A stretch of DNA of 64,000 nucleotides from a virus, in IMG/VR virus record IMGVR_UViG_3300045988_156211; one strand, 5' to 3'. Under the pieces are notes generated by a model that saw only the letters and a list, made by a program, of their open reading frames with translations, did not search any database and was not told the origin of the DNA. Shown piece by piece: positions 37,721 to 39,173 of the stretch. A program made the position numbers and the translations under genes. Position 1 is the stretch's first letter, and the number at the start of each line of letters is the position of its first letter.

Positions 37721-37751
37721 GAAAGCCAGTAATGATTAGTTACTGGCTTTC
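37721..37751 (-). terminator. intrinsic terminator after the 147-aa gene
   Basis: GAAAGCCAGTAA-tgattag-TTACTGGCTTTC is a perfect 12-bp stem, followed on the minus strand by TATATTTTTA. Confidence 0.7.
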
Positions 37752-37767
37752 AAGTAGAGATTTAAAA

Positions 37768-38211
37768 TTATGATGCAGAAGAAGAAGCACCTATAGATAC
37801 TACCACAGAATCGTTGATAACATATCCATAAGCAGCACCATTGTTTACACATGCAACACCCTGATCAGTACCAACTGAAGTGATTGTAGGAGTACTTGAT
37901 GGAAGAGCAGTCCTACCTTGGAAAGCTACCTTAAATCTTCCAGTATAAGGTATTACATCAGACTTACAACCACACTTACCGGGTACTACTATTTGAATGT
38001 ACACTGTGATTGGTACAAATACTGTAGTCCCAATCAATACTGAATTGCCAACTTCATACCTTACAGTAGCATTTGGCTGATTATCATTAGCGATGCAAAA
38101 AGGTTTACAAAAGCTGGCTTTAAAGGTTATCATCTCAGATAACTGATTTGCTACTGGTGCTTCTGATAGCCCAACTGGGCTCTGGTAAATTTGCAAACGC
38201 GGCTGTGACAT
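37768..38211 (-). CDS. small beta-rich, Cys-containing protein of unknown function (probably abundant)
   Basis: 147 aa with a visibly higher GC than its surroundings. It is followed by a perfect 12-bp stem terminator and contains CKPFC and GKCGC. Confidence 0.65.
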   Translation of the reverse strand: MSQPRLQIYQSPVGLSEAPVANQLSEMITFKASFCKPFCIANDNQPNATVRYEVGNSVLIGTTVFVPITVYIQIVVPGKCGCKSDVIPYTGRFKVAFQGRTALPSSTPTITSVGTDQGVACVNNGAAYGYVINDSVVVSIGASSSAS

Positions 38212-38238
38212 AATTCTAATGGTTTAAAGGGTTAAACA

Positions 38239-39078
38239 TTAGAAATTACATCCATTTCCACATCCATTGTTGCATCCACATCCGCAACCATTGTTATTAC
38301 GCTGCTGATACAGCAGGTTAGCAAATGCCTCTGTCTGTTCTTTCTGTGAAAGCTTGAACTTCAAATCCTGGATCTGATTAAGCTGTTCATCTCTCCAGTG
38401 AGAATTGATCATGTCCTTGAGACCCTGGTTACCCATTTCAATGGCCTTCAGGATTTCACATTTGTCCTGACCTTGCTGGTATCCAAGCTGAGAGAATCCT
38501 CTCTCCATACCAGTGTTGGTACGGTCAAAACCGAACTGCATGTTGTTGATTATATCCTTCTGTCCAAGCTGATTCTCATAGCCCATTTTAATGATAGCCT
38601 GCTGTGTCTGGCAGCAGCAGTCCTTAATAGCTGTAAGGATACCCGTATTTCCAAGGTTAACAGCATTGATTACACGTTCAGATGTCAAACCAACCCGACC
38701 AGATACTTTATCAATACCTGCACGGACATCACAGATAGCTCCCTGCAATGAATTGAAGTCACAGTTAAGGTTTGAAGCCAACTGATTGATAGCAGCAGCA
38801 TTACCTTTTACGGCGTCCATAATCAGATTGCTGTTCTGGTTGTCCTGCATCTGAGTGCGGAGTGCCTGCAACTGATTCTGAACTTCGATGTTCTGCTGAC
38901 CCTGACCATTTGCATCCCAGCCATTTCCGAAGAAACGATTAGCAAACATAAGCCATACGAGATAAACGAATGGGTTGTTCCATTCCTGGTTTGAACCATT
39001 TCTCATGAGAGCGGCTGCAGTAAGCATATCATTACCACGGTCACCACAACATACTACTCTATCTACGTCCATATCCAT
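38239..39078 (-). CDS. Q/N-rich, Cys-rich protein with C-terminal GCGCGCNNGCGNGCNF tail, unknown function
   Basis: 279 aa, about 43% GC in the sampled line. Cys clusters are VVCCGDRG, KDCCCQTQ and a terminal (G/N)C repeat. It also has a hydrophobic patch PFVYLVWLMFANRFF. Confidence 0.65.
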   Translation of the reverse strand: MDMDVDRVVCCGDRGNDMLTAAALMRNGSNQEWNNPFVYLVWLMFANRFFGNGWDANGQGQQNIEVQNQLQALRTQMQDNQNSNLIMDAVKGNAAAINQLASNLNCDFNSLQGAICDVRAGIDKVSGRVGLTSERVINAVNLGNTGILTAIKDCCCQTQQAIIKMGYENQLGQKDIINNMQFGFDRTNTGMERGFSQLGYQQGQDKCEILKAIEMGNQGLKDMINSHWRDEQLNQIQDLKFKLSQKEQTEAFANLLYQQRNNNGCGCGCNNGCGNGCNF

Positions 39079-39173
39079 AAAAATAAAAATTTAAAAGTTA
39101 AACATTTAGTGAATTAAAATATAATGATCTCTCCGGAGGAAATCAATTTCTAGTTTAAGGGTATTTTAAAAAC

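Follow-up and report, generated by a model that had tools for sequence, protein, structure and literature searches.

A four-gene accessory late cassette, A-(B)-C-D, of gut Bacteroidales phages

Genes of the cassette

The stretch of DNA analysed here (the window, 64,000 nucleotides (nt) of virus record IMGVR_UViG_3300045988_156211) comes from an AT-rich phage of the myovirus type, with a guanine-cytosine (GC) content of about 32%. An earlier note, made from the letters alone, had described a GC-rich two-gene unit within its virion module. These genes, here called A and B, are followed by two further genes, C and D. On the minus strand the gene order is terminase, portal, protease, major capsid protein (MCP), three fibre-like proteins (702, 507 and 447 aa) and A, and it continues past A with B, C, D, a Neck1/tail-completion protein, sheath, tube and tape measure. 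The cassette is thus co-oriented with the late and structural genes and embedded among them. Its features are listed below, together with the MCP gene used for comparison.

46508..47620, minus strand: MCP gene (phrog_3922, 1e-38)
39079..39173, minus strand: intergenic region of 95 nt upstream of A, with a promoter-like TTGATT-17-TATATT at 39146..39118
38239..39078, minus strand: gene A, open reading frame (ORF) of 279 aa (phrog_16490, 9.6e-12)
38929..38973, minus strand: hydrophobic segment of A, residues 36-50, PFVYLVWLMFANRFF (from alignment and hydropathy)
38611..38619, minus strand: CCC motif of A, residues 154-156 (invariant alignment columns)
38242..38298, minus strand: Gly-Cys tail of A, residues 261-279, NNNGCGCGCNNGCGNGCNF (from the sequence)
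37768..38211, minus strand: gene B, ORF of 147 aa, optional cassette member with an all-beta AlphaFold2 model
37721..37751, minus strand: hairpin resembling an intrinsic terminator 3' of B, with a perfect 12-bp stem, a 7-nt loop and a T-rich tail
37180..37683, minus strand: gene C, ORF of 167 aa (phrog_28898, 1.3e-9)
36596..37177, minus strand: gene D, ORF of 193 aa, clustering by BLAST with DUF7841 (PF25223)

The composition of the cassette was established from 81 loci, in which ORFs were called with tolerance for TAG and TGA recoding and neighbouring genes were clustered. Dereplication at 90% identity of A reduced these loci to 40 groups, which are the basis of all counts out of 40 given here. 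A member of the C family follows A in 39 of the 40 groups and a member of the D (DUF7841) family in 31, whereas B occurs in 15, invariably in the interval from A to C. It is C, the next-but-one gene in the window, that accompanies A constantly, and B is an optional insert. The two-gene unit of the earlier note has to be extended to four genes. A-(B)-C-D is a self-contained, accessory and mobile late cassette of gut Bacteroidales phages.

Gene A encodes a Q/N-rich protein with 13 cysteines and an all-helical prediction; the ORF, VVCCGD, KDCCCQ, the hydrophobic patch and the terminal repeat named in the earlier note are all found in the translation. An alignment of 40 sequences contains 38 invariant positions, with a mean column identity of 58%. 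The N-terminal part is short and carries a nearly invariant Cys10. It is followed by an invariant hydrophobic aromatic stretch, NNPF-Y-LVW-MFA-R, and then by Gly/Asn-rich residues. In the polar, Q/N-rich helical region, C106, C116, KDCCC (152-156), C207 and HW (227-228) are invariant or nearly so. The CCC motif sits within KDCCCQTQ, in which K152, D153, C154, C155 and C156 are invariant. The protein ends in a low-complexity tail. In the subfamily of the window the hydrophobic stretch comprises only 11-15 residues and is nearly invariant in sequence, and the mean Kyte-Doolittle value of its best 19-mer is below 1.6, under the transmembrane threshold. Distant members carry unrelated, more transmembrane-like segments at this place, for example FLWIIFLFFLFPLLG, MLIVLFLILILGF, WFMWVILLFWLW, AWWIIILLIFGW and FLWIIFLFFLFPLL. 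The hydrophobic segment with its Gly-rich stretch is the sole feature kept throughout the family, including the archaeal-virus relative.

The AlphaFold2 monomer of A consists of seven broken helices predicted at low confidence, with a predicted local distance difference test (pLDDT) score of 45.8, and is unusable for a fold search. Hydrophobic residues recur with a periodicity of 3.65, the register is often broken, and the invariant cysteines occupy non-core b/f/g positions. Because of this periodicity, the cysteine positions and the modelled helices, A is probably a bundle of amphipathic helices with exposed cysteines rather than a simple heptad coiled coil, and it is probably oligomeric. The sole similarity of A in the PDB is to the pre-HR1/HR1 (heptad repeat 1) region of coronavirus S2, which is marginal (best phmmer E = 8e-4) and weakens to 9e-3 with the 40-sequence profile of A. 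Homology to spike HR1 is consequently not claimed, and the match is regarded as a likeness of polar helical repeats. This resemblance accounts for the label 'spike protein/glycoprotein' that A carries in GenBank crAss-like genomes, where 'outer capsid protein/viral fiber' is also used. The earlier note could assign the terminal repeat of A to no phage structural family, and no well-known family was matched by A or B; the PHROG family of A is of unknown function and its PDB match is only marginal.

A search of a database clustered at 90% identity returned 3134 homologues of A at E<=1e-3, none of them named. At 50% identity the family forms 994 representative clusters with lengths of at most about 370 aa, and an exhaustive search of these representatives found no fusions to informative domains. 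The motifs are conserved in thousands of homologues and are therefore not due to chance.

Several members of the A family depart from this pattern. In a Paludibacteraceae metagenome-assembled genome (MAG; locus L106, 8001-8606), a shortened A of 201 aa keeps the N-terminal hydrophobic motif and QTCDII...HW and lacks the central part with the CCC motif as well as the Cys tail; C is still the next gene. A distant member in Caudoviricetes sp. vir215, with predicted host Methanomassiliicoccales (L108, 3653-4534), has two CCC motifs and no C-like neighbour. Either the A family extends beyond Bacteroidales phages, or this host assignment is doubtful. Gene A is interrupted by an in-frame TAG in seven loci (L001 (cr7_1), L017, L044, L054-L056 and L062) and by an in-frame TGA in two (L018 and L019), which points to recoded stop codons in the phages concerned. 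In cr7_1, a tRNA-Gln gene is found close to the cassette.

Gene B has 371 homologues, which share an invariant N-terminal SPVGL..APVANQ motif and conserved Cys. Its translation contains the CKPFC and GKCGC motifs reported earlier. The small Cys-containing beta protein proposed in the earlier note is borne out by the AlphaFold2 model, which is confidently all-beta with unusually long strands (pLDDT 86, predicted TM-score 0.79). Structure prediction, suggested there as a check, was thus informative for B and poor for the A monomer. A fold search with the B model in the PDB and BFVD found nothing at E<=0.001, with TM-scores of at most 0.35, and a profile search against PDB sequences found no relative. 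B appears to have a new fold, as judged from the predicted model.

Protein C has a beta-rich N-terminal part and a helical C-terminal part. With a mean column identity of 40% it is far more variable than A. The window copy is divergent, and a word-indexed homologue search with it gave three matches only. The profile of C has marginal PDB matches to syntaxin-1A (1.5e-3) and paramyxovirus F (0.05). Representatives of the D family match PF25223 (DUF7841) at 7.7e-20 and 5e-11, while the window copy of D gives no Pfam match, falling below reporting; a profile search of D against PDB sequences found nothing.

Across Pfam, PHROGs and NCBIfam, the only families found for the cassette proteins were phrog_16490, phrog_28898 and DUF7841, all of unknown function. 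The PADLOC defence-system profiles matched none of the A-D proteins of the window, L098 and L005, and NCBIfam likewise gave no match. No signal peptide was found on A, nor, by inspection, on B, C or D. A literature search returned no paper mentioning DUF7841, phage C3_41T2LP or the crAss gene labels. The cassette belongs to no characterised family.

Expression signals and the coupling of the A tail to B

The GC content of positions 38001-39000 is 0.426, compared with about 0.32 across the window, in agreement with the value of about 43% sampled in the earlier note. Gene A has a GC content of 0.439 and a third-position GC content (GC3) of 0.457, the highest of the 66 window ORFs (mean 0.270, sd 0.054; z about 3.5). 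The MCP gene shares the shift, as had been noted (GC 0.407, GC3 0.367). Gene B is also GC-richer overall (0.399), but its GC3 is ordinary (0.243) and its first and second positions are high (0.48 and 0.47); its rise is therefore an effect of amino-acid composition. The description of A and B as a GC-rich pair consequently holds at the level of synonymous codons for A and not for B. The GC3 values of B, C and D are all native-like (0.24, 0.26 and 0.23).

The codon choices of A are those of the MCP gene. CAG encodes 29 of the 30 Gln residues of A and TTA none of its 22 Leu residues, and the corresponding values are 12/13 and 1/31 for MCP, compared with 42% CAG and 42% TTA in the rest of the window genome. 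TTA accounts for 9/14 Leu codons in C and 11/20 in D. In a survey of 38 dereplicated phage loci, in which each of A-D was compared with its own neighbours, the GC3 of A exceeds that of the neighbours in 89% (median z +1.39, Wilcoxon p = 3e-10). Pooled over these loci, CAG usage is 79% in A and 48% in the neighbours, and TTA usage 11% and 25%. Codon usage and GC3 of B, C and D cannot be distinguished from those of the neighbours across the surveyed loci. Because the MCP-like bias of A is general across the 38 phages, the GC shift represents an expression-type codon bias. Of the two explanations offered in the earlier note, very high expression with host-like codon usage is therefore the better one for A, and a recent foreign origin is not needed. 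The codon signature points to production of A at levels similar to those of the capsid protein.

The same signature is found in the 507-aa fibre-like gene just upstream of A, at 40519..42042 on the minus strand (CAG 17/17, TTA 2/38, GC 0.413). It suggests that this fibre-like protein is unusually abundant and perhaps a head or neck fibre rather than a tail fibre. Elsewhere in the window, three neighbouring ORFs of 147, 288 and 145 aa at 61568..63428 on the minus strand have GC3 values of 0.38-0.41, against the window mean of 0.27, and may also be highly expressed; the two that were tested have no PHROG match. The interval 60001-61000 is strongly AT-rich (GC 0.237).

The strong hairpin after B has the stem GAAAGCCAGTAA/TTACTGGCTTTC at 37751..37721 on the minus strand, and its perfect 12-bp stem, 7-nt loop and T-rich tail are those of the terminator described in the earlier note. 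Together with the codon bias, it points to an abundant A or A/B product and scarcer C and D. The gap upstream of A is also enlarged, with a family-wide median of 90 nt compared with 24 nt. In the window, TATATTTT lies about 45 nt ahead of the ATG of A, where other family members have the Bacteroides -7 box TAnnTTTG. Promoter-like matches in this 95-nt region of the window do not exceed the shuffled expectation and are weak evidence. Family-wide, such boxes were found in 24 of 69 regions upstream of A, which is suggestive, as are the enlarged gaps. A helix-turn-helix (HTH) gene lies upstream of the cassette in 10 of 40 loci.

The C-terminal end of A is a swappable module that is either Thr-rich or Gly/Cys-rich. 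Mapping of the Gly-Cys repeat, proposed in the earlier note, showed that about 80% of the 120 closest homologues of A have the Cys/Gly type; the others mostly have a Thr-rich tail ('...LIAALKTTTTT'). Among 62 distinct full-length A proteins taken from the loci, 22 have Cys tails. A B-family gene follows 20 of these, one of them recognised by a hidden Markov model search (E = 1e-55). In the remaining two (C3_41T2LP and L064), a different small, beta-rich, Cys-containing ORF occupies the B slot. For all 40 A proteins whose tails are Thr-rich or of another type, the interval from A to C is free of genes. The association of tail and B is significant before phylogenetic correction (Fisher p = 4e-13). 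On a neighbour-joining tree of A without its last 30 residues, the Cys-tail state changes at least eight times, and the tree also indicates allele exchange within the myovirus lineage. These joint changes imply that tail and B were gained or lost together repeatedly, most simply by swapping of the 3' end of A along with B. The pairing of the repeat with a small Cys-containing beta protein, which the earlier note had read from a single genome, therefore holds at 22 of 22 against 0 of 40. This co-variation provides good evidence that B acts at the Gly-Cys tail.

Distribution and genomic contexts

Myo-, sipho- and crAss-like phages carry the cassette, as does a prophage of Phocaeicola. Most GenBank occurrences of A are in crAss-like phages belonging to several families; others are in Bacteroides phage C3_41T2LP and the lemur-gut 'Dulem' viruses, with weak matches in viruses assigned to Methanomassiliicoccales. 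No near-identical DNA was found among GenBank phages. Reliable host labels for the cassette are Phocaeicola, Bacteroides, Prevotella, Alistipes and Paludibacteraceae. Firmicutes labels from the genome scan were discounted, as they stem from MAG bins of phage-sized contigs.

The position of the cassette differs between phage groups. In the window and in seven loci of related myoviruses it separates the fibre genes from the neck, sheath and tube genes, and in a siphovirus-like group it follows tail-fibre genes. In cr7_1 and vir215 it comes after a module of a tail protein and the reverse transcriptase of a diversity-generating retroelement (DGR). Gene A is often directly downstream of such a DGR reverse transcriptase and its tail-protein target (L001 3517-4476, L108 1927-2961 and L035-L037). 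In other loci the cassette stands beside holin, endolysin and unimolecular spanin (u-spanin)-like genes. A lysis gene, counted as Amidase_2, Amidase_3, Phage_lysozyme, holin-like or u-spanin-like (lipobox plus C-terminal transmembrane helix), lies within five genes of the cassette in 17 of 40 loci and within three genes in 11. In L005 the cassette is located among replication genes, with a divergent GerE regulator. In the genome of the isolate Phocaeicola coprophilus An818 (L098) it lies between prophage lysis genes and the integrase. The virion module to which the earlier note had assigned the genes is thus not their general setting, as they occur with three tail types and also among replication, lysis and prophage-integrase genes.

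ΦcrAss001 has no cassette. In its relative cr116_1, the cassette is found between an L,D-carboxypeptidase gene and the gp31/MCP genes. The MCP gene of cr116_1 (L002 9481-11811) is annotated as two pieces with an HNH endonuclease gene in between; an intron or intein-like element probably splits it.

A further family of about 150 aa (cluster 5; L037 9499-9963 and 23 other loci) was observed in Bacteroidales-phage lysis cassettes. Its proteins have an N-terminal lipobox (VLVGC) and a C-terminal transmembrane helix, the architecture of a u-spanin, and the family has no Pfam or PHROG annotation. A DUF6808 protein occupies the cluster 5 slot in the P. coprophilus prophage.

In the window itself, the likely lysis genes, with the endolysin candidate, are 16 kb from A. 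The region (54849..55352, minus; 55872..56297, plus; 52571..53266, minus) includes a DUF5675/YkuD-like (L,D-carboxypeptidase-type) endolysin candidate, two small ORFs on the opposite strand with two transmembrane helices each, and a 231-aa protein anchored at its N-terminus. No lipobox ORF of the outer-membrane spanin (o-spanin) type was found anywhere in the window. A C-5 cytosine DNA methylase gene (PF00145, 1.6e-11; 53523..54542, minus) lies between the terminase and the endolysin candidate. The coding strand and the GC skew change sign near 55.4-56 kb (~55400-56400), which marks a point of divergent transcription.

Possible functions and comparison with known systems

The best guess, a tentative one, is that A-D form an accessory complex of the virion surface. 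The four proteins would build a fibre, whisker or decoration, in which A would form an oligomeric helical stalk or bundle and its Gly-Cys tail would bind B as a distal cap. This bond could be made by metal coordination in the reducing cell and/or by disulfides after release; disulfides are present in Bacteroides-phage virions (ΦcrAss001, PMC10172136). The variable C would adapt the complex to the particular virion, and its lower conservation relative to A (40% vs 58%) fits such an adaptor. D (DUF7841) may be a further subunit or an assembly factor, and the terminator after B would hold the output of A and B far above that of C and D. The combination of a conserved A body, a variable distal end and an optional distal protein is consistent with the pattern known from phage fibres. 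The abundance and helical nature of A, and the frequent placement of the cassette right behind fibre genes or ahead of neck genes, also recall fibres or decorations. As B has no signal peptide, the tail of A would meet it in the cytoplasm or on the virion, and this location of the C-terminal part of A argues against a periplasmic stalk of the kind formed by inner-membrane spanins (i-spanins).

Several observations weigh against a virion-surface complex. The presence of A-D in virions is a prediction from their genes, and a literature search turned up no proteomic data on any phage with the cassette. ΦcrAss001, the sole crassvirus with a solved virion, lacks the cassette, for which reason its head fibres gp21 and gp29, themselves unrelated proteins, were rejected as equivalents. 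The hydrophobic segment of A is transmembrane-like in distant members, which is unusual for a surface fibre, and A is almost invariant across differing virion architectures. The placements in L005, among replication genes with its own regulator, and in L098 look like those of an autonomous, host-directed 'moron'. A periodicity of 3.65 instead of 3.5 with broken helices does not describe a simple long coiled-coil fibre, and the AlphaFold2 monomer of A is poor (pLDDT 46).

Nearly as likely, and still only a possible reading, is that A is a membrane-inserted, envelope-acting late protein outside the virion, with C and D as cytoplasmic partners. It could serve as a lysis accessory or regulator, as a membrane-remodelling or fusion-like device, or as a superinfection-exclusion or receptor-masking factor; morons of the latter kind adjoin tail-fibre genes in coliphages. 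The family-wide hydrophobic segment with its Gly-rich stretch and the transmembrane-like hydropathy of distant members speak for this, yet in the window subfamily the stretch of about 11-15 residues is invariant in sequence rather than merely hydrophobic. A near-invariant A that is independent of tail type would be expected for a conserved host target. The autonomous layout, comprising the 90-nt gap, the -7 boxes, the terminator and the HTH genes, points in the same direction. Lysis genes are close in the 17 and 11 loci counted above, but many of these loci have their own holin, endolysin and u-spanin-like genes already, and the likely lysis genes of the window are distant. In the PDB, A and C resemble only membrane-fusion coiled coils (8e-4 for A, 1.5e-3 and 0.05 for C), although these matches are marginal and gain nothing from a profile. 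Moreover, lysis and exclusion proteins do not usually show codon bias at the level of MCP, signal peptides are missing from B, C and D, and the coupling of tail and B would leave the C-terminal part of A in the cytoplasm, unlike that of an i-spanin. Of the roles listed in the earlier note, a cross-linked capsid, neck or fibre component and a membrane-active effector correspond to these two leading readings. A secreted effector, also listed there, is unlikely, given that all four proteins are devoid of signal peptides.

It is rather improbable that A-D are cytoplasmic morphogenesis factors outside the virion, such as a scaffold, a chaperone or an assembly platform for fibres or heads, made in bulk late in infection. 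Their late-operon position beside fibre genes, the restriction of high expression to A, the lack of signal peptides and the dispensability of the cassette in some lineages would suit such factors, and a helical protein modelled at low confidence is typical of scaffolds. However, scaffolds and chaperones usually evolve together with their clients instead of being swapped among myo-, sipho- and podoviruses, and it is not obvious what a swappable tail, a cap protein and many invariant cysteines would do in a chaperone.

A recent import of the GC-rich pair as foreign DNA, that is, a horizontally acquired moron with the composition of its donor, has little probability and was rejected as the cause of the GC shift, being largely refuted by the MCP-like codons and the 38-locus survey. 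The cassette is clearly mobile between phage groups, the GC and GC3 of A (0.44 and 0.46) equal those of a homologue in a phage of 39% GC, and alleles of A were exchanged inside the myovirus lineage. Nevertheless, B, C and D travel with A and have native-like GC3, A makes the codon choices of the MCP and fibre genes resident in the window, its GC3 excess recurs in unrelated loci, and close relatives of the window phage share the arrangement.

Also very unlikely is a membrane-fusion or remodelling machine of the class I fusion protein or SNARE type, formed by A and C and acting on the Bacteroidales envelope during entry or exit. Here the aromatic segment of A would resemble a fusion peptide, the helical region would be metastable and HR1-like, and C would be the partner helical protein, with the Cys tail and B as a redox- or metal-controlled latch. 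The likeness to S2 pre-HR1/HR1 would then reflect either very ancient true homology or striking convergence.

The weakest proposal, that the Gly-Cys tail is the core of a ribosomally synthesized and post-translationally modified peptide (RiPP) or bacteriocin of the microcin B17 or heterocycloanthracin kind with B as immunity or carrier protein, is extremely improbable: Gly/Cys repeats do resemble the thiazole-forming cores of microcin B17 and other thiazole/oxazole-modified microcin (TOMM) precursors, and a variable C-terminus with a co-varying downstream gene recalls a toxin-immunity layout, but a highly conserved 'leader' of 260 aa would have no precedent, the tail is Thr-rich instead in many members of the family, and no YcaO/McbBCD-type gene adjoins A, the conserved neighbours being only B, C and D, without a match to a cyclodehydratase, dehydrogenase, protease, exporter or other enzyme family.

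With more than 3000 clusters at 90% identity, this is a large family. It occurs in the most abundant phages of the human gut, among them several crAss-like families, a cultured Bacteroides phage and prophages. The codons of its main gene are of the kind that marks a very abundant protein, but the gene is unannotated or mislabelled as 'spike glycoprotein' or 'outer capsid protein'. If the cassette encodes a virion decoration, different phage architectures would have a portable surface module in common, and its exchangeable distal end (a Thr-rich tail, or a Cys tail with B as cap) could affect the binding of gut phages to mucus, capsule or cells. If it acts on membranes, it would be a new lysis or exclusion component in Bacteroidales. 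In either case, the co-variation of tail and B predicts a protein-protein interaction that can be tested.

Among known systems, the accessory fibres T4 fibritin Wac, phi29 gp8.5 and ΦcrAss001 gp21/gp29 are likewise dispensable, late and helical and are encoded beside fibre or neck genes. The wac gene of T4 sits between fibre and neck genes, the position of the cassette in the window. As in accessory head and neck fibres, the proximal part of A is conserved and the distal end is variable. ΦcrAss001 gp29 combines a conserved N-terminal peptide with a beta domain, and B is alike in size and layout (PMC10172136). Unlike these proteins, A-D show no sequence similarity to Wac, gp8.5 or gp21/gp29 in PDB searches, and B shows no fold similarity. 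A further differs in its 13 cysteines, its transmembrane-like hydrophobic segment and a periodicity of 3.65 in place of the continuous heptad value of 3.5. The putative distal domain is a separate polypeptide, B.

Spanins (lambda Rz/Rz1 and T1 gp11) share with A a hydrophobic anchor, a long helical region behind it and functionally conserved cysteines in that region, and the cassette is frequently near holin and endolysin genes, though not in the window. However, the hydrophobic segment of A is short and begins at residue 36, after a conserved N-terminal domain. An i-spanin has its transmembrane helix within the first ~25 residues, and A, with its segment at 36-50, fails this test. No lipobox ORF was found inside or after A, B, C and D have no lipobox, and many cassette loci already hold a u-spanin-like gene. 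The assignment of A as an i-spanin with an o-spanin partner was rejected on account of the wrong geometry and the lack of a lipobox partner.

Class I fusion proteins and SNAREs share with A a hydrophobic aromatic segment directly before a polar, Q/N-rich, broken helical repeat. In contrast to class I fusion proteins, A has no HR2, no C-terminal transmembrane anchor and no signal peptide, and its tail is Gly-Cys or Thr-rich. The resemblance is most simply compositional or architectural and not one of homology.

Morons such as lambda lom/bor, phi80 cor and HK97 gp15 are autonomous units with a promoter-like region, a strong terminator and a distinct composition; the cassette has the terminator and the distinct composition, and its promoter-like site in the window is not above chance. 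The cassette also shares their location between late genes, beside tail-fibre or lysis genes or at the end of a prophage. It differs from morons in comprising four genes, in its occurrence in virulent crAss-like phages, and in a composition shift that reflects expression-type codon bias and not a donor signature. Taken as a whole, the cassette most resembles an accessory fibre or decoration module; the alternative is a moron-type membrane factor.

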